Below are positions 27,616 through 60,435 of a stretch of DNA of 64,000 bases, one piece after another. Origin of the DNA: a virus. Below the pieces are notes generated by a model, which searched no databases, had not been told where the DNA came from, and was given only the letters and a program-made list of their open reading frames with translations. Location: the IMG/VR virus record IMGVR_UViG_3300021170_000010, positions 38,900-102,899 of that record. The stretch is one strand, 5' to 3'. Each line of letters begins with the position of its first letter. Position 1 is the first letter of the stretch. Position numbers and translations under genes: made by a program.

Positions 27616-28196
27616 TGCTCACCGTGCGTCCCAGCTACGCCTTCGACCTCGTCGATACGAAGACGGTCTTTTCGATTCCGGTTCCGCCGCGACTCTCCGG
27701 AGGCGTCACGGTCCTAGAGACGTGCGCGCTTCTGTCATTCGCCAAATGGCTGGAAGGAAAGCGCGGTCCGAACGGTGCTTCTATGTTCGAGTTCGGAACG
27801 TTCAAGGGACAGACGACGCGAACTATAGTCCTGAATCTTCCGGCTCTGGCCGTATCGACGCTTGATTTGAATCCATCGCTATCCGACGTTCTGCTCAACG
27901 GGAGTCTCAACGTCACGCGATTGAAGGGTCATTCCGGATCGTTCGACTTCGCGCCGTTCAGCAAAACGTTCGACCTGATCTTTATCGACGGAGGTCACGA
28001 CTACTATACAGTAAAGTCCGATACAGAGAACGCCGTTCGCATGGTTCGTCCCGGCGGAATAATCGTCTGGCACGACTACGGCACTCCGGAGTGGGACGTC
28101 ACCAAGTATCTCGACGAGGTAGCGGAGACGCTGAACATCCATCGCGTGGAAGAGACGAGCCTCTGCTTCTATGAGGAGCCGGGGGTGGCAGCGTGA
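27612..28196 (+). CDS. class I SAM methyltransferase (Methyltransf_24-like)
   Basis: FEFGTFKG; FDLIFIDGGHDY..VKSD; PGGIIVWHDY. Confidence 0.9.
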   Translation: MMLTVRPSYAFDLVDTKTVFSIPVPPRLSGGVTVLETCALLSFAKWLEGKRGPNGASMFEFGTFKGQTTRTIVLNLPALAVSTLDLNPSLSDVLLNGSLNVTRLKGHSGSFDFAPFSKTFDLIFIDGGHDYYTVKSDTENAVRMVRPGGIIVWHDYGTPEWDVTKYLDEVAETLNIHRVEETSLCFYEEPGVAA

Positions 28197-29296
28197 TCAT
28201 ATTCGGCGCTCCCTATAATCCGTCGCACGCCTGGACCGCAGGATGGGGCGATATCCTCGAAGGCATGCGGAAGACCGGCGAGAGGGTCGAGTTCGATCCT
28301 GCGTGGGATAAGACGGATCGTCCCATCGACTTCGACGCGCCTCTGCTCCAATCGACTCGCGCCATAGACATGCTGCCGACGAAGCCGTATCTTCGGAGCC
28401 GCGCGCGGAACATCGCCCAGTCGGTTCCGTGCGAGCAGTTCATCCTGCGGGACTACATCGCGAACGCGCATCGATACTGGGACCACATCGTGGCCGGATG
28501 CGAATGGTCCGCCGAGATGATACGCTCCGCCGGTTATCATTCGGTCAGCGTGATCACGCACGGCGCGAATACGGAGACGTTCACCCCTGCGGAAGATGAT
28601 AAGCCGCGCGACCGCTTCACTATCTTCTCGGGCGGCAAGATGGAGTGGCGTAAGGGTCAGGACGTCGCGATACAGGCCGTCGGCTACCTGATGCAGAAGT
28701 ACTCCGACGTCGAGTTGATCTTCGACTGGTACAATCCTTGGCCGAAGACTGCGGAGAATATCCGGATGACGCGGCTGTACGCGGATAATCCGGACTTGAG
28801 CACGCACCAGATCATGCGGAAGTGCGGCATTGACTTCGGGCGCGTTCGGACGCTTCAGACCGCCTCGGCTACTCCGGAAGAGCACGTCGCCGATAAACTC
28901 CAGGCGTATCGGCAGAGCGACGTCGGGATCTTCCCGAACCGCGCGGAGGGAACTCCGAACTCGATGATGGTCGATATGATGGCCTGCGCGAAGCCGGTCA
29001 TTGCGCTCTACGCTCACGGTCAGCGCGACGTTCTCGACTACCATCAACCGGTCACTTGCACGGAATCCGACGACCTAGAGATCAGAAGTAAGGAAGACGG
29101 CAAACTCCAGGCCGTGTGGTTCGAGCCGCACGTAGACGAATTCATAGCGAAGCTCGAATGGGCATATCGCCACCGGGACGCGCTACCCGCGCTCGGCGCT
29201 GCGAACCGCGAGCGAATCAAGAAGCACGCTCCGGACGTGATCGGGCGGCAGTACGTGGACGTCTGCTCCGGCGTTGGATTGGAGGTGGCAGCATGA
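28193..29296 (+). CDS. GT-B (family 4-like) glycosyltransferase
   Basis: HGANTETF.P; EWRKGQD; YRQSDVGIFPNRAEG; MACAKPVI. Confidence 0.85.
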   Translation: MIIFGAPYNPSHAWTAGWGDILEGMRKTGERVEFDPAWDKTDRPIDFDAPLLQSTRAIDMLPTKPYLRSRARNIAQSVPCEQFILRDYIANAHRYWDHIVAGCEWSAEMIRSAGYHSVSVITHGANTETFTPAEDDKPRDRFTIFSGGKMEWRKGQDVAIQAVGYLMQKYSDVELIFDWYNPWPKTAENIRMTRLYADNPDLSTHQIMRKCGIDFGRVRTLQTASATPEEHVADKLQAYRQSDVGIFPNRAEGTPNSMMVDMMACAKPVIALYAHGQRDVLDYHQPVTCTESDDLEIRSKEDGKLQAVWFEPHVDEFIAKLEWAYRHRDALPALGAANRERIKKHAPDVIGRQYVDVCSGVGLEVAA

Positions 29297-31929
29297 AGAC
29301 CTCTGAACTACTAGCCTGCCACGGCGCTATGAGCACGCTGATGGAAGAACAGAAACTTCAGATAGAGCCTGGAATAAAACAAGGTACGCTTCCTGATATC
29401 CATATTCGTATATCTGCTCTGCTGACCGAGATCGCTCTGCGCAAACCGCAGGAATCCGAACATACGGCGCGGCTCTGGCGCATGGTTCTAGAACTCGATT
29501 CGCAGTCGGCGGAAGCCTATAACGGCATCGGCTATTACGAGCAGTCGCGGAAGAACTGGCTCGAAGCCTCGGCTCTCTTCGGGCGCGCGGCGCAGTTATC
29601 CGATACTCCGCTGGCATTCCTGAACGCTTCTATCGCGCACGATCAACTCGGTAACGTCGATGACGCCATGGTATTCGCGAAAGAAGCTATAGCGCGCGAT
29701 CCGAAGTGCGTCGCGGCGTACGCGCATCTCTACACGCTGTTCGATCAAGAGAATGAACTGGACGCGGCTCGCCAGGTCCTTCTGGACGGTCTAGCGCACT
29801 CTCCGGATTCTCCCGAACTTCTGTTCTGTACCGCCGAACTCGATCTGAAGCAGAGGCGCTACGAGCAGGGATGGAAGAACTACGAGCATCGCGGCACGAT
29901 GGGCACGTCGAGCTTCAGGGGAACGCTCGCGCAACTCCGCAGCGACATGGACGAATATCCGGAATGGACCGGCCAGCCGCTCGAAGGCAAGACCATCGTC
30001 GTGATGCGTGATCAGGGCCTCGGCGACGAGATCATGTTCGCGCGTTATCTGCCCATCCTTAAGGCGCAGGGCGCGACGGTCTGGTTATATACCTATCCGC
30101 GCGCCGCACGCCTCTTGGCCTCGCTAGCCTGCGTAGACGCGGTTTATACGTTTCTGCCGGACATTCCGTGCGAGTTCGACTACTGGGTAGCTATGGGGAG
30201 TCTGGCGCTACGGGCGAATCAGAGGTTAATAAGGTTTTTAGATGATTTCAACGAGTTAGGTCTTTCCGCAGATGAGAAAGACTGGAAAGTACGCGATGAA
30301 ATCTTAACGCCAAAGCGTCTCGAATTCGGACCGTTCCTCAGTTCACGCGTGGTTCGGCAAATCAAGCAATCTTCGAACCTGAAGGTCGGACTCCGCTGGG
30401 CCGGAAATCCCGCTCAAGCGAAGGAGCGCTTTCGCGGTGTTCCGTTCGAATCGCTGAATCCGCTCCTCGACATTCCCGGTATCGACTTCTATTCGCTTCA
30501 GGACGGAGAAGCGGCGAAGCAGTCCGGAGATCTTCTCGTTCATCTAGCGGAATACGGGCATGACGTGGCGGACTGTGCGGCTGCGATCAACGCTCTTGAT
30601 CTCGTAATCACGGTCGATACGATGATCGCGCATCTTGCCGGATCGCTCGGTAAGGACGTCTGGATCATGCTCGGACAGCCTAGCGACTGGCGCTGGGGAA
30701 GCGGACTATCCGGATCGACGCCGTGGTATCCGACTACGCGGCTGTTCCGTAAGAGTGTATGCGACGTGCCGAAGCAGATTAAAGCGGTTCTACGGAACGT
30801 GGTAATGGAGAGGGGTGGCGCAGCGGTAGCGCGCGAGGATCATGACCTTGAGGTCGCGGATTCAAATCCCGTCCCCGCACGGTTCATACCTGTCGGAGAT
30901 TCGTATACGAAAGATGACTGCATAGCTCACGGTAAAGATTACCTAAGCGGTAATCCGGTCTCTATACTACGTGATCTAGTTAAAGAATCAGGCTGTCGTG
31001 TAGACGAAGTATCGTTTACTATCGCTGAAAATTATTGCGCTGAGAATATCGGGATGCAGTTCGATAAAGTTCCTCCAGTGCTGGAACATCCGAATGCTTC
31101 CGTTCCTCCGGAGTTCCGCTATGCGCAGAAGGAGCCGCGCAAGATCGTTCTATGCTTTACAGCCGACTGCCGCTACGGCAAGATGGTCTGGCGCGATAAC
31201 GACTCCTACGTAGGCCGCTCACTCGATCTCTACGGCGAGTACAGCGAAGGCGAAGTGGACGTATTCCGCCGCCTCTTGAAGCCAGGTGATACGGTCATCG
31301 AAGCCGGAGCGAATATCGGCGCGCATACGGTCCCGATTGCTCAGATTCTCGGCTACGGAAACGGTACTAATACGTTAGGCACAGTATACGCCTTCGAGCC
31401 GCAGAAAGAATACTGCCATCTACTCGCAGAGAACGCGCCGTCGAACGTCGATATAACTCTCGCCGCTCTATCCGATTACCAAGGCGAGATCGACGTAGAG
31501 AACGTAGAACTCGAAAAGACGCACGCACCGAACTGGTATGGAGTAGACCGTCCGAACAAAGTTTCATGCATAACTATAGACGCGCTCGACTTCTTAGCGC
31601 TTCACTTCCTGAAGATCGACGTGGACGGCCAGGAGCACGCCATCTTGCGCGGCGGAGAGAAGACCATTGAGAGGCATCGTCCGATTATCTACGTCGAATA
31701 CGACAAGCCGGACTGCTATCCGGACATGATCCTCTGGCTCGACGAGCGCGGCTACCGCGTCTACAAGCACGCCGCGCGGATGTTCAATCTTCAGAACTTT
31801 CGCGGCAACGCGGTCAACGTCTTCGGCGGTCTCGGAAGCACGATGCTGCTCTGCATTCCGAAGGAACGAGCGGACCTGCGGTTCGATACTCTCGGTCTTC
31901 CGCTGGATCGCATGAAGGTTCGGAGATAA
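29293..31929 (+). CDS. TPR + GT9-like glycosyltransferase + FkbM methyltransferase fusion
   Basis: TPR helices; W.GQPLEGKTI..DQGLGDEIMFARY; VGLRWAGNP; LDLVITVDT..AHLAG; PWYP; LYGEYSEGE; EAGANIGAH; KIDVDG.E. Confidence 0.85.
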   Translation: MKTSELLACHGAMSTLMEEQKLQIEPGIKQGTLPDIHIRISALLTEIALRKPQESEHTARLWRMVLELDSQSAEAYNGIGYYEQSRKNWLEASALFGRAAQLSDTPLAFLNASIAHDQLGNVDDAMVFAKEAIARDPKCVAAYAHLYTLFDQENELDAARQVLLDGLAHSPDSPELLFCTAELDLKQRRYEQGWKNYEHRGTMGTSSFRGTLAQLRSDMDEYPEWTGQPLEGKTIVVMRDQGLGDEIMFARYLPILKAQGATVWLYTYPRAARLLASLACVDAVYTFLPDIPCEFDYWVAMGSLALRANQRLIRFLDDFNELGLSADEKDWKVRDEILTPKRLEFGPFLSSRVVRQIKQSSNLKVGLRWAGNPAQAKERFRGVPFESLNPLLDIPGIDFYSLQDGEAAKQSGDLLVHLAEYGHDVADCAAAINALDLVITVDTMIAHLAGSLGKDVWIMLGQPSDWRWGSGLSGSTPWYPTTRLFRKSVCDVPKQIKAVLRNVVMERGGAAVAREDHDLEVADSNPVPARFIPVGDSYTKDDCIAHGKDYLSGNPVSILRDLVKESGCRVDEVSFTIAENYCAENIGMQFDKVPPVLEHPNASVPPEFRYAQKEPRKIVLCFTADCRYGKMVWRDNDSYVGRSLDLYGEYSEGEVDVFRRLLKPGDTVIEAGANIGAHTVPIAQILGYGNGTNTLGTVYAFEPQKEYCHLLAENAPSNVDITLAALSDYQGEIDVENVELEKTHAPNWYGVDRPNKVSCITIDALDFLALHFLKIDVDGQEHAILRGGEKTIERHRPIIYVEYDKPDCYPDMILWLDERGYRVYKHAARMFNLQNFRGNAVNVFGGLGSTMLLCIPKERADLRFDTLGLPLDRMKVRR

Positions 31930-33069: not shown

Positions 33070-33561
33070 TTGGGAGGATTCGTGAACATCGTTTCCGCTA
33101 GACACGATCTCTTAGAGAATCTCAAAGAGAGTAGCGACTACAGAGAAGCGTATGTGGCTGAGAGTGTCTATGCGCTCCTTGCATCTCAGATTCGGGTGCT
33201 TCGCGAGCAACGCGCCTGGTCCCAGAAGCGCCTTGGAAGAGAAGCCAATATGGCGCAAGAAAGAATTTCGATTTTGGAAGATCCAAACTCTGACACGAAG
33301 CCAACACTGACTACTCTTCTTCGGATTGCTGCTGCTTATGATGTTGGCCTGGATGTTCGCTTTATTCCATTCAGCCGCGTGTTGGATGGGTCATTTAACA
33401 ATAACCCTGAATCCCTCGGGGTTCCTAGTTTCGCTAGCGAAGCAATGGATATCGATCAATCCGACAGCAGATTGACGCATGAAATCGGGCTTGATGAGAT
33501 GGCGCGTAGAGCGCGCCGCGCCATTGAAGAAGCTCTGTGTAGACGGCATCCGCTTCGATAG
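33070..33561 (+). CDS. XRE/HigA-like HTH protein inside the IS
   Basis: QIRVLREQRAWSQKRLG...QERISILE...TLTTLLRIA. Confidence 0.75.
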   Translation: MGGFVNIVSARHDLLENLKESSDYREAYVAESVYALLASQIRVLREQRAWSQKRLGREANMAQERISILEDPNSDTKPTLTTLLRIAAAYDVGLDVRFIPFSRVLDGSFNNNPESLGVPSFASEAMDIDQSDSRLTHEIGLDEMARRARRAIEEALCRRHPLR

Positions 33562-34162
33562 AGACGTTATCCTTCAGCTTGTCGATGACGTGGTGACGAT
33601 TGACGGTCGGAACGTGCCACGTCCTCACCTTGCCGTCGCGCTCCACCATTCCGAACACCGGCTCTTTGTCGTACTTCGCACGCTTGCGGCGCTTGTCGTA
33701 TTTCTTCGCGCCGACGTAGGTTTCGTCCGCTTCGATCGTGCCAGTGAGCGGTGTGGCTGTCGCGTGCTCAAACAGGTTCATCGCTTCGCGGATGCGGTGA
33801 TTCAGGTACCACGCGGTCTTGTACGCCACGTTCAGATCGCGCTTCATCTGAAGGGCGCTGAGGCTCTTTTTCGCGTTGCACATGAGCGCGATGGCCATGT
33901 ACCACTTCTCAAGATCCAGGTGCGTATCGTTGAACAGTGTGCCCGTCATCGGCGTGAACTGATACTTGCAGGCGCGGCACTGGTAGATGTAGCGAGTCTT
34001 CTGAATGCCGTGGCGGTTCGGCTTGCTCTTCGTCGCCATGAACGTAACCTTGTCGCTGTCGCACTTCAGGCAACGCACGCCGTCCGGCCAGCGCATCGCG
34101 GCGAGATGCTTCACGCAGGCTTCTTCATCCGCGAACTTTTTGGTTACGTCTATCAGGTTCAT
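33434..34162 (-). pseudogene. IS1595 transposase, C-terminally truncated
   Basis: RWPDG..C..C Zn ribbon, KTAW....RIR, EADETY; similarity stops at AVYT (~33537), before the remaining DDE residues. Confidence 0.85.
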
Positions 34163-35334: not shown

Positions 35335-35397
35335 CGGCGGATTATTCGCGCCGTCGTTAAACCTCAACAACCGAAAAACTCTTAAGGAGAGTGAACC

Positions 35398-36321
35398 ATG
35401 GCGACCATCACGTCGCAAAATACGGCCCAGGCGATTGTCAAGCTGGTGGCCGCCAAATACCTCGACGCGCTCATCGGTGCAACCGTAATGGCCAACATCG
35501 TGAACCGCGACTATGAACCGACTCTGGCGCAGGCCGGAGACACCGTCAACATTCCGATTCCTCCGGTGTTGACGGCCAACACGATCTCCGAAGGCGGCTC
35601 GGTCGTTCCTCAGACGCCGTCGCTCGGAAACGCGCAGATCATCCTGAACCAGCACATCGAGTCCACCGTGGCGATCCCCGATGCGACGAAGGTGCTGGCC
35701 GTGCCGGATCTCTTGAAGATCTACATGGAACCGGCGGTCAATGCCTGCGCCGAGCGCATCGAGACCGATCTGCTCAACCTCTACACCAACTTCACGGTCA
35801 ACGCCGCGACCGGCGGCGCGACTGCGGTGGACGAGGCGCGCATCGACTTGGCGGAGACGGAACTCTTCGCGCAGAAGGTCCCGAAGAACCAGCAGAAGTT
35901 CCTGATCGTGTCCGGCGCGACCTACGGCGCTCTCCGTCAACTGCCGCGCTTCACCGACTGGAACAACCTCGGTCCGAACAGCCAGCCTTCCGCGCAGATC
36001 ACCGGAATGCTCCCTGGCGGCGCTGCCGACGGTCGCATCAAGGACTTCTGGGTCTATCGCTCCCAGTTCGTCGCGAAGCCGTCTAGTACGACCTACAACG
36101 TGGCCTTCGCTCGCGACGGCATCGCGCTCGTCATGCGCAAGCTACCGCAGCCGCTTCCCGGCACCGGTGCCATTGCCGAGTTCGTCGAGAAGGGCGGATT
36201 CGGCCTGCGCGTCATCATGAGCTACCAGTCCGGCACGCTCGCCCAGCAGTTCACCGTCGATGCCCTCTACGGCTGCGGAATCCTCCGCAATTCGTTCGGC
36301 GTCCAGGTCCAGACCAATTAA
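35398..36321 (+). CDS. major capsid protein (P22 coat-like)
   Basis: VNRDYE....GDTVNIP; D.LYG near C-terminus; strong RBS and biased codon use. Confidence 0.85.
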   Translation: MATITSQNTAQAIVKLVAAKYLDALIGATVMANIVNRDYEPTLAQAGDTVNIPIPPVLTANTISEGGSVVPQTPSLGNAQIILNQHIESTVAIPDATKVLAVPDLLKIYMEPAVNACAERIETDLLNLYTNFTVNAATGGATAVDEARIDLAETELFAQKVPKNQQKFLIVSGATYGALRQLPRFTDWNNLGPNSQPSAQITGMLPGGAADGRIKDFWVYRSQFVAKPSSTTYNVAFARDGIALVMRKLPQPLPGTGAIAEFVEKGGFGLRVIMSYQSGTLAQQFTVDALYGCGILRNSFGVQVQTN

Positions 36322-36340
36322 AGGAGAAACGACAACCGAT

Positions 36341-36916
36341 ATGTCAACCGCAACTCAGACCCCGCTGGCCAGCAGCATCGAGCGCCTCCAGCGCGCTTAT
36401 ATGGCCGGATGGGGACAACTCAATCCGAGAGTGCTGGACCCGAACTGGAGCAATCGCTACGCGCGCCGTGAGGTCCTCGCGACGCTCGCACTGGCCGACC
36501 AGAGCATCACGCCGGAATCCGTCGTTCATATCGCGGAGAGTAATCCGGATGATGCCGATCTTCTCGGAACGAAGGGAAGCAATCCCATCGTCTGCGAAGC
36601 AACGGGACGCGTCGCCGCCCAGCGGATCGCGGAAGGCTCACACCGCTTGGCGACTCCCGAAGAGATCCATTCGTTTCGGCAGGCTCAGATCAAACGAGAA
36701 GAAGCCTGCGCCGAGATGGAGCGCAATAATCCGCAGAACCGCAAGAACACGGAGCGCATCGTCGAGCGCACCGTCGTCATGACGCAAGCCGAAGCGGAGC
36801 GCGCCGGTTATACCTTGACCGCGCCGCCCCAGAACCAGAAATCCACCACGGGCGACACCACTTCTGCCGCCGCCGTGCTCCAGAACAAGGCAGAAGGAAG
36901 GGGTAACCAGAAATGA
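36341..36916 (+). CDS. head-module hypothetical protein
   Basis: AAGGAG RBS, start 36341. Confidence 0.55.
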   Translation: MSTATQTPLASSIERLQRAYMAGWGQLNPRVLDPNWSNRYARREVLATLALADQSITPESVVHIAESNPDDADLLGTKGSNPIVCEATGRVAAQRIAEGSHRLATPEEIHSFRQAQIKREEACAEMERNNPQNRKNTERIVERTVVMTQAEAERAGYTLTAPPQNQKSTTGDTTSAAAVLQNKAEGRGNQK

Positions 36917-37329
36917 CGATCACCGCATTGACCACTGGCCTCCAGACGGTGAGCGCCACCGGGGCCGTATCTCCGACCGCCGGTGTGGACATCTCGGCCA
37001 TGAGCAAGCAGGTCACCGTCTGCATCGAGTGCATTCAGTTGACGGCGTCGAAGACCATAGCCGTCCAATTGGAGACGTCCACGAATGCCTTCACCGCGTC
37101 CGTCGCAGCCAACGTATTCCAGTTTATCGGAGCGGAAGGCGAAGGCGGCACTACGTTCACCGCAGGCGACTACACGCAGGCAACCGATAAGCGCTCCGTC
37201 ATCGTCAAGCAGCAGCTTCCGTTCTCGGCGGCGAACTACTTCGGCGCTTCCGGCGCGAAGGCTCGGCTGAACGTGATCGGCGTCGATGGATCGGCGGGCG
37301 GAACGTTCAACGCTTGGCTCGAAACCTAA
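36913..37329 (+). CDS. putative head decoration / spike-base protein
   Basis: Thr/Ala/Gly-rich beta pattern, position after MCP. Confidence 0.5.
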   Translation: MTITALTTGLQTVSATGAVSPTAGVDISAMSKQVTVCIECIQLTASKTIAVQLETSTNAFTASVAANVFQFIGAEGEGGTTFTAGDYTQATDKRSVIVKQQLPFSAANYFGASGAKARLNVIGVDGSAGGTFNAWLET

Positions 37330-37348
37330 TCGAGCAATTCTCCAACTC

Positions 37349-37393
37349 GGGGCGGCGGAGATTGCCCTCAAGCCATCCGCCGTCCCTATTTTC
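37349..37393 (+). terminator. hairpin, putative intrinsic terminator
   Basis: GGGGCGGCGGA...TCCGCCGTCCC followed by TATTTTC. Confidence 0.5.
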
Positions 37394-37418
37394 ATAATCT
37401 ACTTTAAGCGACCATCCA

Positions 37419-38393
37419 ATGCTCTTTACTGACCGCATGTTCTGCACAGCCGAGGCGCTGTCGTTCATCGACGGAGAACTATCTAACGTCGCTAAAGCGG
37501 AGAGTCTAGACATCAGCGACGCGGAGACATCGGTCCTCTGGCACTACACGCTGTCAGCGGGAGAGAAGCTGCTCTCGCGCGTCCAGAACTTTAGCGGCTA
37601 CCTTGTTGGGGTCGGCGTCAATTCGAACCACGCGGCTGCCGTGATGAACGTCCTCAGTACAGCGATCAATAGGCCGCGCGCGCTGCTTCAGCAGATCACC
37701 GTCGCGGAACCGGACCACACGCGCCACGCGTTCGCGCGCTGGTGCCGCTATTCGGTGCTCAAGGACTTCTATCAGAACGTCTTCCGCCGCAAATTGAACG
37801 ACCGCTACGAGCGGAAGATGAACGACTTCGCGGAGGAAGAGAAGGCTCACTGGACGATCCTGAAGGGACGCGGACTTCCGATCATTCTTTCTCCTCTGGC
37901 CGCACCGGGAGCGATCTGGACGTACGGCGCTGGCACCTGGGGTTCATCGAACGTGACGACCACGGCTGGTGGCTCCCAGCCTGGAGCGGCTACGTACGAC
38001 GTCTCGATCACGTGGTGTTCTCTGCCAGCATACGTCAATTACGCGAATCAGAACGGAGCGGAAAGCGCAGGGTCTATACCGCAATCTCAAGCGGTGGCTG
38101 CGAACCACGTTTTACAGATCAACCTCGCCGGATTGAATCCGCCGACGTCGATCATGCCGGTAGCGATAGGAACCGCTCAGGGGATCTTCGCGCCCATGAA
38201 CGCAACGCACTGGAACGTCTACGTCGGTCCGCAGAACGGCGCGCGCTGCTTGCAGAATGCCGTTCCGATTCCGATAGCGACGACCACGTACACGCTGGCC
38301 GACGTTCCGGTCGTTAATGGAAACTTCGAGAACGCAGGACAACCGGCGCAGTATGACTTCTCTATACCGGATGGACTTTGCTGGAGAGCATAA
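37419..38393 (+). CDS. putative head-tail adaptor with C-terminal beta domain
   Basis: Helical N-terminus, beta-rich C-terminus (ATHWNVYVG); position. Confidence 0.5.
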   Translation: MLFTDRMFCTAEALSFIDGELSNVAKAESLDISDAETSVLWHYTLSAGEKLLSRVQNFSGYLVGVGVNSNHAAAVMNVLSTAINRPRALLQQITVAEPDHTRHAFARWCRYSVLKDFYQNVFRRKLNDRYERKMNDFAEEEKAHWTILKGRGLPIILSPLAAPGAIWTYGAGTWGSSNVTTTAGGSQPGAATYDVSITWCSLPAYVNYANQNGAESAGSIPQSQAVAANHVLQINLAGLNPPTSIMPVAIGTAQGIFAPMNATHWNVYVGPQNGARCLQNAVPIPIATTTYTLADVPVVNGNFENAGQPAQYDFSIPDGLCWRA

Positions 38394-39871
38394 TGAAACT
38401 TATAGTATCAACCGCATTCTTTGCCGTGAATCTTTGGGCGCAAGGCGTGGTAAATCCTCCAGCGGTAGCGACGTATCCCGCTGCTGGTATCGCCAAATCG
38501 ACAGGTAGCGCGTGGGCTTCGAGTTACGGTGTGACGGGAACTGGCAGCAACGTAATGCTGAATTTGGACCCCACATTCCCGCTCAACAATAGCGGCCCTG
38601 TCCTGACGTGGGACCCGCAGCAGGCTGATGGGATCAAGTTCTACCATAACCTTTCAGTCGCGGCGAATCCAGGTGACCCGACCAACGGAAATCCGGCCAC
38701 TAACTGGACGTACAACATAAATTCTGGCGGCGGTGCGGCCAATCCAGCGCAGACAGGGTGGGGATGGGCCGAGGAAGGCAACTATTGCCCGACTTACCAC
38801 AACGGTACCGATCTCGTGGTGGATGGGTCGAATAACCTGAATGTTAGCAGTGCCTCTTACAACTTCGTCGCTGGCGACGTTAACCGGCAAATTCAGATCA
38901 CGGCTGGCACCGGCTGGACACACGGCTATTACACCGTCTCCAGCGTGGCCGCAAACAAAGCAATTCTTGCATCGTCCCCTGCGCCTGTAGGTACGACGGG
39001 CGGCACGTGGTGGCTGGATGACTGTAGACATGAGGCGCACGTCTTCTTTGTGGACCGCAGCGGCGTGCAGCATCGACCGTTCTCCTTGACAGTGAGCAAA
39101 TATGATTCGCTCGGCGCGGCAGGATCATGGGTTTATCTGCTTCACTTCAACACCATAAGTTTCTTCAACGGAGACGACGGAGCGGGGACCAGCGGCAACA
39201 TCAGCGCAGGAACCATCAACATGCTCGGCTACAAAACCGCTGGCACATATACGGACGGCTGGACAATTGGCACAAACCCTAGCACCGCTCAGGTGACATT
39301 TGGTAGCTTGGGTTCCCACTCCAACGCCTTGATTTTCAGCGCCTGGACATCGATCTCAATGGGTAACGTCTCGATCAACCCCAACAACGGTAATGCCCTC
39401 TCGGTTACCGGCAACGTACTTGCCTCGGCTGGCTTGCAAGGCGCGAGCGGCAACTTCGTCACCGCTGGAGCTCCACTCGTGATTTTCAATAACACATCGG
39501 GCGGCACCAACACGTCCGACATCCGATTTCAGTCAAACGGAACGAATCGCTGGCAGATCAACGACAATGGCGGCATCGGAATGCATGACTATGTTGGCGC
39601 TCGATCCGTTTTTTTCGCGGCAAGCAACGGGCCGCTTGAACTGATGCCGGATGGCGGCAAAGGTGTAACGGTGGGCAGCACGGTTACTGACCCAGGAGCC
39701 AATAATCTAGCAGTGACAGGCACGATCAAGTTCCTTGGCACAAACAGCACCGCCGCCGTGGTCGGGGTTATCGGCTCAACTTGCCCAGCGGTCACATGCA
39801 CGGCAGCTTATACCTGGGTGCAGGCCGTCGCCGCAGACGGCTCAACGATTTGGATACCGGCCTGGAAATAA
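38393..39871 (+). CDS. fibre-like protein with N-terminal signal peptide
   Basis: Start 38393 (TAATG overlap): MKLIVSTAFFAVNLWA/Q; G/S/T/N-rich; fibre-like C-terminus WVQAVAADGSTIWIPAWK. Confidence 0.65.
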   Translation: MKLIVSTAFFAVNLWAQGVVNPPAVATYPAAGIAKSTGSAWASSYGVTGTGSNVMLNLDPTFPLNNSGPVLTWDPQQADGIKFYHNLSVAANPGDPTNGNPATNWTYNINSGGGAANPAQTGWGWAEEGNYCPTYHNGTDLVVDGSNNLNVSSASYNFVAGDVNRQIQITAGTGWTHGYYTVSSVAANKAILASSPAPVGTTGGTWWLDDCRHEAHVFFVDRSGVQHRPFSLTVSKYDSLGAAGSWVYLLHFNTISFFNGDDGAGTSGNISAGTINMLGYKTAGTYTDGWTIGTNPSTAQVTFGSLGSHSNALIFSAWTSISMGNVSINPNNGNALSVTGNVLASAGLQGASGNFVTAGAPLVIFNNTSGGTNTSDIRFQSNGTNRWQINDNGGIGMHDYVGARSVFFAASNGPLELMPDGGKGVTVGSTVTDPGANNLAVTGTIKFLGTNSTAAVVGVIGSTCPAVTCTAAYTWVQAVAADGSTIWIPAWK

Positions 39872-39873
39872 TC

Positions 39874-40164
39874 ATGCGCAAATTAACGATCTTCTCAATG
39901 TTCGCCTGTGCCGCTTTCGCTCAGGATCAACCGCCCGCTGCCAAGCCCATCGCGCCCGAGTACATGACCTTGGCGACCGCGCTTGACCAGCAGATGCGGC
40001 GGATTATCGCGGAGTCGAATGCGGCTATGAAGCGGCTCGAAGCGCACGCCTGCGAAGAGGCAAATATCCCGGCAGATAAGTGCGCGGTGAACTGGCAGGC
40101 TGGTACGGTGGGCGTGAAGCCGGAGCCCGCGAAAACGGCCACCTCGGAACCGTCGAAGAACTAG
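39874..40164 (+). CDS. small signal-peptide protein (possible fibre chaperone)
   Basis: MRKLTIFSMFACAAFA/Q; helix; C..C pair. Confidence 0.65.
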   Translation: MRKLTIFSMFACAAFAQDQPPAAKPIAPEYMTLATALDQQMRRIIAESNAAMKRLEAHACEEANIPADKCAVNWQAGTVGVKPEPAKTATSEPSKN

Positions 40165-40165
40165 A

Positions 40166-42475
40166 ATGAACGCGCTATATAAAATTATCGTCAGCATCCT
40201 CCTGGCAGCCTGTACCGCGTGGTGTCAGGATACCCTGACGACCGTATCCGAAGTGATCCACGACGGAGCCGGAAATCCAGTCAGCGGTTCCTGCACGTTC
40301 CGCGCGGCTACAGGAAGATTCCTCGGAGCAGCGCAGGACCAGATAATCGGCGAGCCGGTTACCGTGAAGTTCAAGAGCGGAGCGTTCTTCGCGAAGATCG
40401 TTCCGACGGATACGGGAGTACCGGTAGGGCAGTATTATGCCGCATCGTGCGTCTCCGATACGCGCGGATGGAGCAAGACCGGAATCTGGCTCGTGCCTAC
40501 CTCGTCTACGCCGGTGACGTGGAATTCGATATGGGGAACGACGCCTCCGAATCCGTCTGCCATGATTCCGCCGTCTCAGGTAGTCTCTGCTGGAATCGGA
40601 GCCGGAACGTTCTGCTTCCTATCAGTGAACGGAACGGTCGGATGGAATCCATGCCCGAACACAAGCGCCGCGAATTATAACTTTACGCCGCAGACTCCGG
40701 GCGGAACGCTAACGTCCGGAATAACGAACACGATCTCTCTTCCTCTCGGATGCCCGCTCGGAGTTTCTGGAACTGACGTAGCGCACTACGTATACCTTTC
40801 TAACGGTACCGGGACTGCGGAAGCCACTCCGATAACCGGCGGGACCTGCACCAGTGGAGCGCCATCCGGAACGATCACCGTAACGCCTGCTAACAACCAC
40901 AGCGGAGCGTGGACGGTCGGTAGCGCATCAGTCGGTATTCAGGAGGCCATAAACTCCGCTATAGTCGGCTCTATCGTCCCCGTTCCTCCTGGAGCGTACA
41001 CCGTCTCTCCGATCACGATATCGAGTAAGATCAATCTCTCGCTTTCGTCCGGAGCGGTCCTGACGCTGCGGAACAATAGCAACTTCCCGGTTATAACGAT
41101 AACCGCTGGCGGATCTTCGATATCTGGCGGGGAGATCAACGGAAACGGAACCAATAATACGTCTCCGCCGACCATCGGAAACGACGGCGTGGCCGTCAAC
41201 GGGGCCTCTAAGGTCGAAGTCTCCGGAATCTATATTCACAATTGCGCTAATGCCGGAGTACTTCTGACCGGCGCTACCACTGAATCAAGCGTTCACGATA
41301 ATCACTTTTCGGCTAACGGGATGCCAGCGTGGATGAGCGGTTCCGGAGTAGCGCAGAACGTAATCCGAAACAATACATCGAACGGCGACGTCGATGGAAT
41401 CTACGCGAACTCCGCTGGCCGGAACATAATCGCGTCGAACATCATAGAGAACACGACCGGCCCGTGGCCGTCTCCGGATAACGCAGGTTGCATATACTTT
41501 GATACGGCTCAGACCGTAACCGGAAATACTCTCACGAACTGCGGCAACAAAGGTATAACTAACTTTTTCGCAACGAACTGCACGATCACGAATAACGTCA
41601 TCCTGAATTCTGGCGCGTTGGCTACTTCGGTCTATCGCGGTACCGCCATCGAGATTAACGACGGCAATAGCTGCGTGATCCAGGGGAACTTTATTAGGTC
41701 TCCATCGGGAGCCGGTATCCTGATTCTAGATACGATAAACGCGGTCGTCACGTCGAATCGAATCGAGAACGCAGGCCAATGGTGTCCGGCTCATTTAAGT
41801 GAATCGCAGCCGCAGGTGTGCAGTGCCATCGCTATGTTCTGGGAATCGCAGAGCCCGTCTGTGGCCAGTACGGCGAACAACACAATCGCCCTTAACGTCT
41901 TTACCGGAGCCGCCGTATATGGCATTCGCGAGGACGACTTCAATTCGCCCGTTCAGCAGGCTCACTTCCTGACGAATACCTACCTCGGCAATTACGGGTT
42001 CGCCAGCGGAACGACGGATCTTTCTCTCGCTCCGAATACGACGGCCATAGTGGCCTGCAACAACCTGAACGCCATCTACGGTAGCGTCGGGTGTAGTTTA
42101 TTGAATCCAGTCTTCAGCGGCCTTACGGTGGCGACCGGTAATATGGAAGTGCAGACGATACCAGTCGCGACATTTAAAGTAGGCACCGGCCCTAACGGTG
42201 GAAACGCTGATGGCATCCTGATGAAGTGGGACAACGGACCACACAACGGCTACACGGACGTAAGCGGCCCGTTCATTGGTCTGCGTCCCTGGATCATCAC
42301 GGACCAATCGACCAGTTGGAACGGCTGCGTGCAATACGAAGGCACCGGCAGTCCGAACGGCGTCGTCACCGGAAACCCCTGCGACCGGTACTGGAACAAG
42401 TCCGGCGGATCGGGAACGACCATGTACGTGAAGGAATCCGGTACGGCGTCGAATACTGGATGGGTCGGGAAGTAG
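40166..42475 (+). CDS. beta-helix (pectate-lyase-like) spike/depolymerase with signal peptide
   Basis: MNALYKIIVSILLAACTAWC/Q; parallel beta-helix repeats (I.NN.I.N); C-terminal GSPNGVVTG...YVKESG..NTGW spike motif. Confidence 0.75.
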   Translation: MNALYKIIVSILLAACTAWCQDTLTTVSEVIHDGAGNPVSGSCTFRAATGRFLGAAQDQIIGEPVTVKFKSGAFFAKIVPTDTGVPVGQYYAASCVSDTRGWSKTGIWLVPTSSTPVTWNSIWGTTPPNPSAMIPPSQVVSAGIGAGTFCFLSVNGTVGWNPCPNTSAANYNFTPQTPGGTLTSGITNTISLPLGCPLGVSGTDVAHYVYLSNGTGTAEATPITGGTCTSGAPSGTITVTPANNHSGAWTVGSASVGIQEAINSAIVGSIVPVPPGAYTVSPITISSKINLSLSSGAVLTLRNNSNFPVITITAGGSSISGGEINGNGTNNTSPPTIGNDGVAVNGASKVEVSGIYIHNCANAGVLLTGATTESSVHDNHFSANGMPAWMSGSGVAQNVIRNNTSNGDVDGIYANSAGRNIIASNIIENTTGPWPSPDNAGCIYFDTAQTVTGNTLTNCGNKGITNFFATNCTITNNVILNSGALATSVYRGTAIEINDGNSCVIQGNFIRSPSGAGILILDTINAVVTSNRIENAGQWCPAHLSESQPQVCSAIAMFWESQSPSVASTANNTIALNVFTGAAVYGIREDDFNSPVQQAHFLTNTYLGNYGFASGTTDLSLAPNTTAIVACNNLNAIYGSVGCSLLNPVFSGLTVATGNMEVQTIPVATFKVGTGPNGGNADGILMKWDNGPHNGYTDVSGPFIGLRPWIITDQSTSWNGCVQYEGTGSPNGVVTGNPCDRYWNKSGGSGTTMYVKESGTASNTGWVGK

Positions 42476-42482
42476 CGTAGGC

Positions 42483-43322
42483 ATGCCTTCTCTCGATAAG
42501 ATCCACGCGCAGCAATCCGCGTATCAGGACGCGATGGTCCGCGCGTTCGAAGAGCATCTACGCGCCATAGTCACGGCTTCTCAGGCGAGCGTAACGGCGA
42601 AACTACAGCACGATCTCGTGATCGAAGACGGCATAATCCAGCAGACTCCGGGGAATCTTAAACTCATCAGGAATCTGAATAATCTTCTCGTTAAGGAGAT
42701 GAAGAAGCGCGGATTAAAGACGCTTCTGAACGCCTATGCCGGAGAGTTTCCGCAGCAGCTTCAGTTCTTCGATCAGACGCTGGAGTACCTCTCAGAGCAA
42801 ATGGATACTCCGCTTCCGAAGATCAAGTTCACCGGAGCCGACATAAGCGTCATGTCGAGCTTCCAGGCGAACGCGGTATCGAGTCTTGAAACGGCTATGG
42901 AGACGGCGGCTGCGGCAGTAATGACGCGCGGTATGTTGAGCGTCGGCGGCCTACGCTTCGGAGAGCTGGTAGAAACGCTCGGTAAGCGCCTCGACGTTGG
43001 AATCGCTCAGGCGCGAACGATAGCCGATACCGGAATGAGTGTGTTCTACCGGACGGCGACGGATCGCGGATATCGGGCTATCGAGGCTTCGTTTGGAAAG
43101 ACCGTAGTGAAGTATAAGTATAGCGGTCCGAACGACGTACTGACGCGTCCGTTCTGCGTTCATCTTCTCGCGGTCGATAAAGCGTATACGCGAGAGCAGA
43201 TCGACAAGATGAGCAACGGTCAACTCCCGAACGTCTTCATCAGTGGCGGTGGTTGGAACTGCCGCCATAATTTCCTCCTCGACGTAAGCGAACTAGAAGT
43301 TATGGCTGCGGAGGCCGCATGA
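42483..43322 (+). CDS. head morphogenesis / minor capsid protein (SPP1 gp7/MuF-like)
   Basis: YSGPND..TRPFC...GGWNCRH. Confidence 0.75.
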   Translation: MPSLDKIHAQQSAYQDAMVRAFEEHLRAIVTASQASVTAKLQHDLVIEDGIIQQTPGNLKLIRNLNNLLVKEMKKRGLKTLLNAYAGEFPQQLQFFDQTLEYLSEQMDTPLPKIKFTGADISVMSSFQANAVSSLETAMETAAAAVMTRGMLSVGGLRFGELVETLGKRLDVGIAQARTIADTGMSVFYRTATDRGYRAIEASFGKTVVKYKYSGPNDVLTRPFCVHLLAVDKAYTREQIDKMSNGQLPNVFISGGGWNCRHNFLLDVSELEVMAAEAA

Positions 43323-43541
43323 CGCCGATTCCGGAAGGAATCAAGAAAGAGCGTACTCCTTCTGAGACTCTTATAGCCGCACTAGAAGACTTCGGAGAAT
43401 CCGAACCTCAGATGTGCGTGATTATCTGGACGAGTGACAACGGTGATATAAATTGGAGTACTTCGACGCGCAATCGGTCTCCGATAGTCGGAATGCTAGA
43501 GACGGTGAAGCATTTGATCCTGAAACGTATGGAAGACGACC

Positions 43542-44321
43542 ATGCCTAGCGGCGCGACGTTCACTACTCCCGGAGGCGGAAACGCGGCTATATCAATCCG
43601 ACAGGAAGTTCACGCGCTTATGACCGTAACGGCTGGAGATATGCTCTACGTCGGACAGGCATACCGCGCTCGGATCGTGAAGCGTACGCTCCAGGGGACC
43701 GACGTCAATGGAGTACCGTTTGCCGCGTACTCGCAGAAAGGTCCCTACTACTTCTACCCGAATAGGGAAGTCGGAGCCGCTCACGGACCGAAGGCCACGG
43801 CTAGCAGCCGCAAGGCTCGTGCGACGGCTGCGAAAGGTAGACAACGGCTCGCTAAGGGCCAAAGAACGCCCTACGGTATCCGCTACGCCAGCTACGGGGC
43901 AGCTAAGGCGGCTCACGGAGTCGGAAACGTCAACCTCTACGGCATGGAGCAGCATACGCACATGCTTGATACGATTATGGTGCGCGCCGGAGGTTCGGAG
44001 TTGCCGCCCAGTTCCGGCGGCGCGGACTTCGGAAGTGAGTTCTCTTCGTTCGAAGCGAATACTCCGGAGAACAATCTGGCCATCGGATTCTACGGCCCTG
44101 AGGCGGAACGCGCGCGCGGAAATAATGAAGGCGTTCCGAAGGTCAATCTTCCGAAGCGGGAATTCTTCGCTCTTAACGACATGGACCTGCGCGTCGGAGA
44201 GCGGGCGATAGGGCAGAGGATGATGTCGCGCGCGCAGGCCGGATCATCCGGGGCATCTCCCGCGTCGAACGTGGCGCAATATCAGAGCGGTCCGATAACG
44301 ATAGACGACGTGGGATTCTAA
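43542..44321 (+). CDS. neck / tail completion protein
   Basis: G.DV.G..F..YS; LPKREFF. Confidence 0.6.
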   Translation: MPSGATFTTPGGGNAAISIRQEVHALMTVTAGDMLYVGQAYRARIVKRTLQGTDVNGVPFAAYSQKGPYYFYPNREVGAAHGPKATASSRKARATAAKGRQRLAKGQRTPYGIRYASYGAAKAAHGVGNVNLYGMEQHTHMLDTIMVRAGGSELPPSSGGADFGSEFSSFEANTPENNLAIGFYGPEAERARGNNEGVPKVNLPKREFFALNDMDLRVGERAIGQRMMSRAQAGSSGASPASNVAQYQSGPITIDDVGF

Positions 44322-44324
44322 CGA

Positions 44325-44891
44325 ATGGCCGACGTCTGCCGCATCGCGCGACAAGCTCTGTTCAATCGGATCTCTGATCAGACGCTTGGGTTCAATGCTA
44401 CGTACGCAGCCGTTCAGCCGGGGTATTTAGACTTCTTTAGCGGAGATCCGGTCGATCCAATCGTCATTGACTTCTCGGCGGGTTCGGTAAATTTCAACTT
44501 CGGACGCGTGCCGCCGGACTTGATCGAAGAAACGTCCGCGTTCACGTATCCGTTTCTAACGATATCAGCAGAGCGGATTCAGCCGTGGGGAACCGGGAAC
44601 CGCGTCCACTACCAGCAGTTTTCCGGCGCGATACAGGGATTCGTTGAAGTCCACGTTTCCTGGGAGCAAGAAGAAGTACGCGACTTCGAAACTCTTCCTG
44701 ACGCCGTGATCGACGCAATGTTCCAGTGCGTGCAGGCTCCGTCCATGAGCCAGCCAAACGTTGCGAATTCCTGGAACACTCTGAACTTCCGGTACGATCT
44801 GAGCGCTCAGAAGACTCCGGTGTTAGCCCTCGGCCAGGGATGGCGCAGGACGATTCTGTTCGCGTGCTCGTTCGAGGCGATGATCGCCTGA
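44325..44891 (+). CDS. putative tail terminator
   Basis: Size and position before the major tail gene; YPFLTI. Confidence 0.5.
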   Translation: MADVCRIARQALFNRISDQTLGFNATYAAVQPGYLDFFSGDPVDPIVIDFSAGSVNFNFGRVPPDLIEETSAFTYPFLTISAERIQPWGTGNRVHYQQFSGAIQGFVEVHVSWEQEEVRDFETLPDAVIDAMFQCVQAPSMSQPNVANSWNTLNFRYDLSAQKTPVLALGQGWRRTILFACSFEAMIA

Positions 44892-44913
44892 AAGGTATAA
44901 GGAGAATCAAAAA

Positions 44914-45240
44914 ATGGTCTATCGTTTCGTTGGTTCGTCCGTCGATCTCGGCGGCAGAATGGTCGAGCGCTTCGGAGAGAAGGTCGAACTCGATGAGGCG
45001 TTCGTGCGCGAACTGGCTGATCGGAACTGCTTCCTGCCGGACGCTGACTTCGCCGCGTGCGGCTTTACTCCGACAGAACTTGAAGCTAACTATTCCACGC
45101 AGCTTCACGTCGGCGCGAAGACGGAGTTCATCGCCAAGCGCGACAAGGCTTGGGCAGCGCTGGCTGCGTATCGGAAAGCGCTAAAGACTCCATCGGCGGA
45201 TGTCGTCGCCCCAATCGTACCCGTAAAGGAAGGTGAATAG
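44914..45240 (+). CDS. hypothetical tail-module protein
   Basis: AAGGAG RBS. Confidence 0.55.
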   Translation: MVYRFVGSSVDLGGRMVERFGEKVELDEAFVRELADRNCFLPDADFAACGFTPTELEANYSTQLHVGAKTEFIAKRDKAWAALAAYRKALKTPSADVVAPIVPVKEGE

Positions 45241-45242
45241 CC

Positions 45243-46292
45243 ATGGCCGTTTGGTCAGCAAGTCCTCTTGATCGGGTGTTCGTCCAAGCGCAGGCTTCGA
45301 ACACTCCGCGAACCATCACGAACAGCGCCGGAACGTGGACGAACACCGGCTCTATCCTCACGCGCCACCAGAGCCTCACTCTTACGCAGAACAGGCCGAC
45401 GACGACGGCTCCGTATAAAACCGGAACGCGGTCGAACCTCAACGGCATCGCGGGGCGCACGTCCGGCGGATTTACCTGGACCGGTCCGCTGATCCCGAAC
45501 GGCGTGACGTCTACGAATCCAGATCTCGATCCGATGTTCTCTGCTATGTTCGGACAGGTCGGATCTGCCGGAGCGTACACTATGCTCGATACCGGCATCC
45601 TGCCGTTCGCTCTCTTCCGCTTCAATCGTTCCGGCGGATCGAGTCCGGAGCATCAAATCGCGGGCGGATGTATTCCGCAGCGCGTGACGTTCACGTTCGG
45701 CGGCGAGCACATGATGATGAGCGTCGAAGGAAAGTGCGTCGCGATCTGTAGTTCGGCCCAGTTCTCGCAGTATCCGTTCACCGGATTCGATACCGTGTCG
45801 CAGTTCGGCCTGACGACGTTTCCGACGGAGCCGAGTTCCGGCGCTCCGATCACAGTTCACGGCAGCCTGATCAACGGCTTCGGCGGAACGGCGACTATGT
45901 TCACGGTTTCTCCGCTCGGTCTGCGCGGCACGTATTCCATCGTCCTGAATACCGGCCTCGACTTCGCGGAAGATGGGTACCTCGACGGTTATCCGTTTGC
46001 CATTACGTCCGGGCGCAGAACGGCGTCGATCAGTAACATGCACTTCATCGACTCCGACGACACGAACCTGAAGACGCTCAAGGTGAATTCGTTTACGAAG
46101 ACCTCCGGCGACATAGTGATCGTCGTCAACAATATCTCGGGAGCCACCGCGACGTTCACGCTGAAGAGCGTCCAATTGAATCCGTATCAGATCGTCGAGA
46201 ACGGCGGAGCGTTCGACATCAACTTTTCAGAAGCCACGGCCCACGCGAGCGCCATCGGCAACATCGACGACTTCAGCTTGGCGTTTACGTAG
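45243..46292 (+). CDS. major tail (tube) protein
   Basis: 349 aa, beta-rich, upstream of chaperone and TMP. Confidence 0.7.
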   Translation: MAVWSASPLDRVFVQAQASNTPRTITNSAGTWTNTGSILTRHQSLTLTQNRPTTTAPYKTGTRSNLNGIAGRTSGGFTWTGPLIPNGVTSTNPDLDPMFSAMFGQVGSAGAYTMLDTGILPFALFRFNRSGGSSPEHQIAGGCIPQRVTFTFGGEHMMMSVEGKCVAICSSAQFSQYPFTGFDTVSQFGLTTFPTEPSSGAPITVHGSLINGFGGTATMFTVSPLGLRGTYSIVLNTGLDFAEDGYLDGYPFAITSGRRTASISNMHFIDSDDTNLKTLKVNSFTKTSGDIVIVVNNISGATATFTLKSVQLNPYQIVENGGAFDINFSEATAHASAIGNIDDFSLAFT

Positions 46293-46307
46293 AAAGAAAG
46301 AGACGGT

Positions 46308-46949
46308 ATGGCATTTTCAGCAGAATACGAGTTCGCTTCAGCGGCAGTTCCTGGATCGAAGATCACGCTCCGCCGCATGGGGTTCGCGCGGCGGACGGAG
46401 GTAGACTTTAAGGCGCTGAAGCTGCGCCAGAGGATGCGCGAGATCGAGCAGGAATATCCTCCGCAGAACGATAGGGAGAAGGAGATATCGCGCCAACTCC
46501 AGGCAGCTATGAAGAAGCTGGAGTATACTCCGGAAGCCGATAAGCTGGCCGTCTATTCTGCCGACGTCGCGCCGCTCGAAGAAGAATTCCGCAACGTCCC
46601 GATATCGGTAGAGATTCGGAAGACTCGCGCCGCGTTCGATCAGGAGTATGCGCTCGTCGATTCGCAGATCCGCTTGATCTGGATTCGAGAAGGATTCGTT
46701 AAGATCGAGGGCGGCGAAGCGGACGGCATGACGGTCGATCAGATCCTCGATTCGGCTCCTCAGGCGCTCTCATTTGAGATCTACGCGGCGCTTCTTTCGG
46801 ACGGGCGATTGACGGGAGAAGAATCAAAAAACTCGCAATCGCATTCCACTTCGGACGCACCGGCGGGTGGGACAAGCGAGAGTACAAGTGCGCCGGGTGC
46901 GTCGAATGGAACAACCGAAACTGCTATACCAAGCACCCAGGCAGCGTAG
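46308..46949 (+). CDS. tail assembly chaperone (G)
   Basis: Position; slippery A AAA AAC at 46826-46832. Confidence 0.75.
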   Translation: MAFSAEYEFASAAVPGSKITLRRMGFARRTEVDFKALKLRQRMREIEQEYPPQNDREKEISRQLQAAMKKLEYTPEADKLAVYSADVAPLEEEFRNVPISVEIRKTRAAFDQEYALVDSQIRLIWIREGFVKIEGGEADGMTVDQILDSAPQALSFEIYAALLSDGRLTGEESKNSQSHSTSDAPAGGTSESTSAPGASNGTTETAIPSTQAA

Positions 46950-58643: not shown

Positions 58644-58645
58644 CG

Positions 58646-60434: not shown

Positions 60435-60435
60435 C

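Follow-up and report, generated by a model that had tools for sequence, protein, structure and literature searches.

Predicted export signals and signal-linked cysteine pairs on the fibre and spike homologues of a tailed soil phage

The 64,000-nucleotide stretch of viral DNA analysed here (IMG/VR record IMGVR_UViG_3300021170_000010, positions 38,900 to 102,899; hereafter the window) contains three consecutive genes, the trio, for a fibre-like protein (P0001), a small protein (P0002) and a beta-helix spike (P0003) (Table 1). The record behind the window is a complete virus genome of 102,899 bp with direct terminal repeats, of which the window is the final 64 kb, in which the capsid gene (phrog_283) precedes the trio and the connector and tail genes follow it. 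A preliminary description of this DNA had placed the trio in a tailed-phage structural setting and had read the N-terminus of each protein as a basic, hydrophobic and cleavage-site segment followed by glutamine at position +1. The genes form a tightly coupled part of the late operon in this complete phage genome, and the open reading frames (ORFs) and N-termini (MKLIVSTAFFAVNLWA/Q, MRKLTIFSMFACAAFA/Q and MNALYKIIVSILLAACTAWC/Q for P0001, P0002 and P0003) matched on re-inspection.

The ATG of P0001 overlaps the stop codon of the upstream gene (ATAATG, 38390-95) and is preceded by GGAG 6 nt upstream, and the starts of P0002 and P0003 lie 2 nt and 1 nt past the preceding stops. In P0001 the next Met in frame comes at residue 55, in P0003 at about residue 133, and an upstream TTG at 38378 would merely put five residues ahead of the P0001 signal. 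True starts further downstream, which the preliminary description had considered, are ruled out by this tight coupling and by the lack of a nearby in-frame start. Since the starts are fixed by translational coupling, the signals are not a start-codon artefact.

Signal peptides were called with a crude von Heijne-type heuristic for the n-, h- and c-regions, combined with conservation among homologues. The n-regions carry K2, R2K3 and K6 (P0001, P0002 and P0003, respectively), the h-regions span 13-14 residues, and the cleavage motifs are LWA/Q, AFA/Q and AWC/Q, so that all three proteins have the n/h/c organisation of Sec and signal peptidase I substrates. When the whole genome was scanned with the heuristic, ~8 of 163 ORFs were positive, including all three trio proteins; by our own arithmetic from this ratio, three adjacent positives would occur by chance with a probability of ~0.01. 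None of the tail-tip proteins (337, 1475 and 817 amino acids (aa)) had a signal-type N-terminus. The AlphaFold2 (AF2) models predicted a lone N-terminal helix at residues 2-16 of P0001 and 2-18 of P0003. We found no DsbA-like protein and no signal peptidase in the phage genome, and the phage would therefore depend on its host for both.

P0003 has the fold of a right-handed beta-helix (Pfam Beta_helix PF13229, 5.4e-21; NosD PF05048, 4.4e-11). Its AF2 model is confident over residues 160-610, with the helix at 290-610, and the predicted local distance difference test (pLDDT) score is 30-45 for residues 21-160. The pre-helix module, which holds C196/C228, is common to 135 proteins and 147 viral contigs at 50-66% identity. 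The top Foldseek match in the PDB was the Vibrio polysaccharide (VPS) lyase RbmB of Vibrio cholerae (PDB 9ozl; E 1.6e-6, template modelling (TM) score 0.70 on the target), followed by AlgE epimerases, a K1 capsule lyase and the tailspikes of CBA120, Dettilon and Sf6, and more than 100 phage pectate-lyase or tailspike models matched in BFVD. P0003 is thus predicted by its fold to be a polysaccharide depolymerase or lyase; its sequence similarity to the solved tailspikes is nil. Mature P0003 contains 17 Cys, including 150/163, 196/228, 540/552, 631/643 and 721/739, and several lie within the helix core. Because this number is odd, not every Cys of the mature protein can pair. A region-limited search with the N-terminal domain returned the query alone.

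Besides the signal, P0001 has a fibre region of low complexity, a beta-barrel module inserted in the chain and, at its C-terminus, a conserved domain, and its Cys are C132, C211, C464 and C469. All the cysteine pairs claimed earlier for the trio lie where they had been placed, including C132/C211, which brackets the beta module. The AF2 model is confidently folded only in this module (pLDDT 94-98) and has low confidence elsewhere. The module is found 1-8 times each in more than 100 other proteins, in which the flanking Cys are not conserved, and it gave weak VIA-align matches (Z 6-7) to barrels of lambda gpJ, the phi92 endosialidase and the Solidus tailspike. Homology of P0001 is a mosaic confined to the module and the C-terminal domain, without a full-length relative. 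We found no Pfam, PHROG or PDB sequence match and thus no homology to annotated fibre families; what P0001 has in common with fibres is the modular architecture and relatives inside structural modules. Relatives with the same C-terminal domain bear very similar signals ending WA/Q, FA/Q or LG/Q, and six viral contigs encode signal-less fibres of 590-971 aa with this domain directly 3' of head genes. The nearest clusters in the ESM Atlas were all viral (scores 0.88), which we take as a lead only. Of the two large proteins, both said earlier to end in motifs of phage fibres or spikes, the fibre bears the claim out; for the C-terminal 160 residues of the spike we found one relative only.

P0002 is made up of its signal (residues 1-16), a helical core with C60 and C70, the only Cys of the mature protein, and a tail rich in Pro, Ala and Lys. 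It had no Pfam or PHROG match, and the nearest ESM Atlas clusters were viral proteins of 90-100 aa (scores 0.91 and 0.90). On one viral contig (L036), a signal-bearing protein of 108 aa encoded 3' of a signal-bearing spike weakly resembles P0002 (28% identity, E 0.008 in a single comparison). P0002 may act in the periplasm as a helper of either the spike or the fibre.

Conservation of the signal in homologues, proposed earlier as a check, was then assessed in the relatives of these proteins. A signal is present in 78 of 139 database relatives (a file that includes fibre relatives), in about a third of the spike relatives on viral contigs, and in about half of the 168 spike relatives overall. 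Relatives without a signal begin right at the mature motif (for example, M-ATPTPVFPAAVATD vs ...AFAQ-TAKFPTAIATD). Across the relatives, the signal is a unit that is present or absent as a whole ahead of the mature domain.

The signal tracks a cysteine pair. Where P0003 has C196 and C228, its relatives show Cys/Cys or else Val (or a gap)/Ala, and almost never a single Cys. Among database proteins, 63 had the signal and both Cys, 10 the signal without the pair, 19 the pair without the signal and 27 neither (Fisher p = 4e-7); the corresponding numbers for viral loci were 16, 3, 4 and 36 (Fisher p = 3e-8), and those for the merged set of 168 non-redundant sequences were 82, 12, 13 and 61. Several of the 25 discordant sequences in the merged set are visibly N-truncated or have an internal signal behind a mis-called start. 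The link holds within separate N-domain architectures (21, 6, 0 and 47 for type A; 8, 1, 1 and 3 for type B), and in type B a further Cys (G-F-C-x-Q-G-G) is switched to Val in the signal-less forms. The C-terminal CxxxxC of the fibre behaves similarly: it is present in 13 of 15 signal-bearing members vs 6 of 14 signal-less members, three of which are N-truncated, and on viral contigs a signal-bearing protein (L168) has TCPAVTC where six signal-less ones have SPA(V/T)TN. In raw counts, the association of signal and Cys is strong and appears in several lineages and in two unrelated domains; tests that allow for phylogeny lean in the same direction, with low statistical power. Export and disulfide folding are supported because the signals recur in homologues and track Cys pairs in two unrelated domains, and we consider it very probable that the trio is exported and folded oxidatively outside the cytoplasm. 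The preliminary interpretation is thereby upheld by comparative evidence as far as export with periplasmic disulfide folding is concerned; for the fates it had offered for the exported proteins, attachment to particles or release as free proteins, the data point both ways.

We compared the position of the spike in related loci. In one locus with a signal-bearing spike (L006) and one with a signal-less spike (L029), the gene has an equal position between homologues of the portal, the capsid protein (same PHROG as in this phage) and an Ad3-like adaptor. Judged by sequence and gene order, signal-bearing and signal-less spikes are positional orthologues in homologous structural modules. L006, an incomplete contig, encodes another protein with a signal, in which the conserved N-terminal fibre domain is retained, so that both of its fibre-like proteins bear signals. 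A 107-kb viral contig (L019, 5837-22140) has six consecutive large late genes whose products (838, 147, ~1240, 1578, 707 and 515 aa) carry Sec-type signals, mostly with +1 Gln; one of them shares the N-terminal domain and module of P0003, with its signal behind a mis-called upstream start. Both L019 and L036 encode rows of signal-bearing large late proteins, including a pair of spike and small protein.

The conserved module of the spike also occurs in metagenome-assembled genomes (MAGs) of Bryobacterales, Sulfotelmatobacter, Terracidiphilus and other Terriglobia and in one of Planctomycetota. Because of these occurrences we infer an acidobacterial host, and this soil phage of ~103 kb probably infects Acidobacteria. 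Gln was at position +1 in 49 of 89 signal-bearing relatives, by a crude call of the cleavage site. In a Bryobacteraceae MAG that carries the module, +1 Gln was found in 8 of 41 crude signals on 300 kb of one contig (G001:C73:1-300000; L153-L167), vs a background of 4%, and the same MAG encodes a Glu_cyclase_2 glutaminyl cyclase (PF05096, E 2e-99; G001:C162:18758-19456). The Q-rule was defined for Bacteroidetes, and Acidobacteria were not analysed in that work (PMC5837995). The two hallmarks of the rule, +1 Gln and a host with glutaminyl cyclase, are both found for the trio, with the host assigned indirectly and cyclisation putative. These data hint that a habit like the Q-rule exists outside Bacteroidetes. 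Phages of P. gingivalis encode exported proteins of unknown function with +1 Gln (PMC10367356). Like the Bacteroidetes proteins (PMC5837995) and those phage proteins (PMC10367356), the trio has the +1 Gln of signal peptidase I substrates, as if the phage copied a host habit. Unlike in the Q-rule case, the host here is probably a member of the Acidobacteriota and the enrichment measured on a single Bryobacteraceae contig is of moderate size. The proteins of the P. gingivalis phages, unlike the trio, are not described as fibres or spikes.

How does the trio compare with other known systems? P0003 resembles beta-helix tailspikes (P22 gp9, Sf6, CBA120 TSP3 and Dettilon gp208) in its right-handed beta-helix, in its position in the structural operon and in the order of an N-terminal non-catalytic domain, the helix and a C-terminal domain. 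It differs from them by its Sec-type signal, the +1 Gln and the signal-tracking Cys pair; as far as is known, the tailspikes described so far lack a signal peptide and reach their fold in the cytoplasm. The head and tail of tailed double-stranded DNA phages are built in the cytoplasm, and textbook assembly is wholly cytoplasmic. Virion proteins with Sec signals, pVIII and pIII, are known from inoviruses, and pIII becomes disulfide-bonded in the periplasm before it joins the particle. Unlike the phage studied here, however, inoviruses are assembled at the envelope and extruded through it without lysis, and there is no relation in sequence or fold. Signal-bearing phage proteins encoded in or beside structural genes include Lom and Bor of lambda, Llp of T5 and Cor. 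All of these are small, either outer-membrane proteins or lipoproteins, and are expressed from signals of their own, whereas the trio comprises large fibre and spike homologues that are translationally coupled within the operon. Outside phages, RbmB is secreted by V. cholerae. Pantoea WceF is exported and has a tailspike-like trimer fold (PMC7949094). RbmB (PDB 9ozl) and WceF are like P0003, as it is read here, in being beta-helix polysaccharide enzymes located outside the cytoplasm; they differ in being encoded in chromosomal exopolysaccharide or biofilm clusters, with no phage late operon and no fibre or helper gene, and WceF uses the twin-arginine translocation (Tat) pathway, not Sec. Our literature search found no description of Sec signal peptides on the fibres or spikes of tailed phages. 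In fold and gene position the trio matches phage tailspikes and fibres; its export signal, its +1 Gln and its predicted signal-linked disulfides set it apart from them.

We propose that the trio is a late-expressed cassette for recognition of host glycans, consisting of a fibre, a small helper and a beta-helix depolymerase spike. Each protein would carry a cleavable type I Sec signal that is cut before Gln by the host signal peptidase I, the exposed Gln would probably be converted to pyroglutamate, and each protein would fold in the oxidising periplasm, where the cysteine pairs would form disulfides. The ancestors of the trio would be virion fibres and spikes that related phages make in the cytoplasm, and their slot in the operon would have been retained. 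Tailed particles filled with DNA would be finished in the cytoplasm without the trio, while trimers wait in the periplasm; the action of holin, endolysin and spanin at lysis would merge the compartments, and the trimers would dock as accessory head-proximal or neck fibres. In P22 and T4, tailspikes or tail fibres are added late and spontaneously, and docking at lysis may be likened to this. The gain would be disulfide-stabilised appendages capped by pyroglutamate and suited to acidic soil, and an undocked surplus could also thin the host exopolysaccharide. Docking at lysis is the fate that we prefer, at somewhat less than an even chance; a virion role is favoured because signal-less spikes and fibres hold the corresponding position in structural modules.

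Several observations weigh against this proposal. On the side of the export signals, the short module tree gave 3 independent contrasts on supported branches only and is underpowered, and among the 16 closest pairs differing in the signal, 6 changed in the expected way, 1 in the opposite way and 9 showed no difference (sign test p = 0.125). On the side of docking, no docking domain or partner was identified when the N-terminal domain of P0003 and the flanking genes were examined, and all relatives of this domain bear signals; the trio-flanking genes showed no similarity to the Ad3-like adaptor of L029 in BLASTP. A tblastn search of 50,697 phage records with P0001 and P0003 gave no match. Compact relatives of the phage keep the terminase and portal genes, the capsid gene at 60-64% identity, and the genes for the 324-aa upstream product and the 1475-aa tail protein, and the trio is absent from them. 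The phage has signal-less tail-tip proteins, and the trio would therefore be accessory, not the sole receptor binder. Moreover, the top structural neighbour of P0003 is a freely secreted bacterial matrix lyase, docking after lysis implies dilution, and we found no precedent in the literature for post-lysis docking of exported appendages in tailed phages.

Some of these observations favour a free role instead, namely the signal-less tail-tip proteins, the absence of the trio from minimal relatives and the match to RbmB. The trio would then be an exported enzyme with blockers, secreted by a lysogen or late in infection, that never becomes bound to particles. Acting from the periplasm and from outside, the beta-helix enzyme would cut or remodel the exopolysaccharide or O-antigen of the host itself and the fibre would bind the same glycan, so that receptors are removed or masked on the infected cell and on debris, causing superinfection exclusion and freeing progeny from the matrix. 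We regard this as nearly as probable as docking at lysis. Besides the secreted biofilm lyase RbmB as the best fold match, alginate epimerases and lyases come next, and the phage carries a glycosyltransferase and methyltransferases as possible glycan modifiers. Bacteria export tailspike-like exopolysaccharide enzymes (WceF via Tat; PMC7949094), and there is the parallel of the unexplained exported +1 Gln proteins of P. gingivalis phages (PMC10367356). However, a cytoplasmic enzyme would be freed at lysis anyway, so that export adds little for a late gene, and the non-enzymatic fibre and helper are harder to account for. In relatives the slot is held by signal-less virion-type fibres and spikes, and no promoter-like or terminator-like signal of the trio's own was recognised. 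In addition, both fibre-like proteins on the incomplete L006 contig bear signals.

Alternatively, the signals could be uncleaved anchors that tether the proteins to the inner membrane, either on its periplasmic face or as a platform for assembly in the cytoplasm, until another protease or lysis frees them. The h-regions of 13-14 residues and the Leu at position -3 of P0001, which is not ideal for cleavage, are compatible with anchors, as is the S8 subtilase gene at the end of the phage genome, adjoining that of another signal-bearing protein. We consider this improbable, as the small -1 residues, the conserved +1 Gln and the short h-regions are typical of cleaved signals and signal-less relatives start exactly at the mature motif. 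Even less likely is that nothing is exported: the proteins would then be virion components of the cytoplasm whose N-termini are hydrophobic by chance or form buried helices, and their Cys would be structural or metal-binding. Phage capsid proteins do yield false positives in signal-peptide prediction (PMC10367356), our heuristic is crude and the Cys count of mature P0003 is odd, but the pattern occurs in three adjacent genes, at the low chance given above, and the segment is present or absent as a unit and tracks Cys pairs in two domains. Equally unlikely is that P0003 is a lipoprotein cut by signal peptidase II before Cys16, and thus a membrane-anchored exclusion factor like T5 Llp or Cor: the motif LAAC at residues 13-16, which the preliminary description did not mention, fits a lipobox at the pattern level together with Lys6, and counting Cys20 the number of free Cys becomes even, but we rejected this reading because Cys16 is not conserved in the N-domain relatives, which all align on small-x-small/Gln (the post-signal Gln of P0003 aligns with that of P0055, P0097, P0058, P0061 and L036).

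Table 1. Features of the late region, in coordinates of the window; signal peptides and modules are predictions.
Feature	Position	Strand	Remarks
Large terminase	22336-23886	+	
Probable portal	24196-26058	+	homologues lie between terminase and capsid genes in related compact modules
Methyltransferase and glycosyltransferase gene block	27549-31929		Methyltransf_24, GT1/GT4 glycosyltransferase, 937-aa TPR and FkbM-methyltransferase ORF; between portal and scaffold/capsid genes
IS1595-family transposase	33434-34162	-	between packaging and head genes
Scaffold-like gene	5' of capsid gene	+	
P22-type major capsid gene	35398-36321	+	phrog_283, 3e-33
Three small/medium genes	36338-38393	+	between capsid gene and trio
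Upstream structural-module gene, 324 aa	37419-38393	+	stop overlaps P0001 start
P0001, fibre-like, 492 aa	38393-39871	+	
P0001 signal peptide	38393-38440	+	residues 1-16, cut before Gln17; heuristic scan, relatives
P0001 beta-barrel module, ~80 aa	38786-39028	+	residues 132-212, bracketed by C132/C211; AF2
P0001 C-terminal domain	39680-39868	+	residues 430-492, C464-x4-C469 loop; shared C-termini of ~30 proteins
P0002, small protein, 96 aa	39874-40164	+	
P0002 signal peptide	within 39874-40164	+	residues 1-16, Gln17 next
P0003, beta-helix spike, 769 aa	40166-42475	+	
P0003 signal peptide	40166-40225	+	residues 1-20, cut before Gln21; heuristic scan, alignment of Gln
P0003 pre-helix module	40655-41005	+	residues 164-280, holds C196/C228; AF2 pLDDT >90
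Downstream gene, 279 aa	42483-43322	+	starts 7 nt past P0003 stop; weak match to phrog_758, 2.7e-5, head-morphogenesis family
Tail genes	up to 58113	+	include 976-aa tape-measure-sized protein
Tail-tip proteins, 337, 1475 and 817 aa		+	pectin-lyase-like, host-specificity-like and Ig/tail-fibre matches

Neither Pfam nor PHROG gave a family for the flanking genes at 36338-38393, and homologues of the 324-aa upstream gene come after the major capsid gene in the compact related modules. On the plus strand of 35345-46500, we found no sigma-70-like promoter and no intrinsic terminator around the trio, with a consensus that may not suit the host. The compact modules are dozens of viral contigs of ~14-18 kb (L092-L150, for example L095, L115 and L143) without signal-bearing genes, with a tail homologue of ~1300 aa related to the gene at 51223-55650; judged by size and content, they may be acidobacterial elements that resemble gene transfer agents or satellites.

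The products of the methyltransferase and glycosyltransferase block may alter host glycans or virion proteins, and FkbM homologues adjoin spike genes in other viral loci too (L013, L014, L058, L062 and L077). ARAGORN placed a tRNA-Met at 30808-30881, within the 937-aa ORF (29116-31929), so that either this ORF represents two genes or the tRNA call is spurious. The early region contains a TnpB gene (OrfB_IS605 / Cas12f-like TNB; 10644-11780, plus strand), a second mobile element beside the IS1595 transposase, and on the minus strand at 17752-18321 a 189-aa protein is encoded that has a strong N-terminal transmembrane anchor (h-region score 48) and no Pfam family. A fourth signal-bearing protein, of 226 aa and with zero Cys (MKVISFLLFSALAVSA/WQ...), is encoded in the stretch 62139-64000, and 3' of it lies the S8 subtilase gene (Pfam 8.5e-43), which extends beyond the end of the window. 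A Pfam search of ten genes, nine of them within 58323-64000, recognised no holin, endolysin or spanin.

Overall, our analysis raises the tentative idea that many tailed phages of Acidobacteriota, the present one among them, make their receptor-recognising fibres and spikes in a separate compartment and attach them once lysis merges the compartments. Two-compartment assembly, if true, would be a route not described for Caudoviricetes. Exported, disulfide-bonded fibres and spikes would mean either that the final assembly step takes place outside the cell or that phages routinely ship spike-derived enzymes to the envelope, where they strip receptors. The finding bears on host range in abundant soil bacteria, on telling structural from auxiliary phage genes in metagenomes, and on the production of stable depolymerases, for which periplasmic rather than cytoplasmic expression would be the choice. 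The link between signal and cysteine pair yields a simple marker at the sequence level, for which cultured phages of Acidobacteria offer a test.

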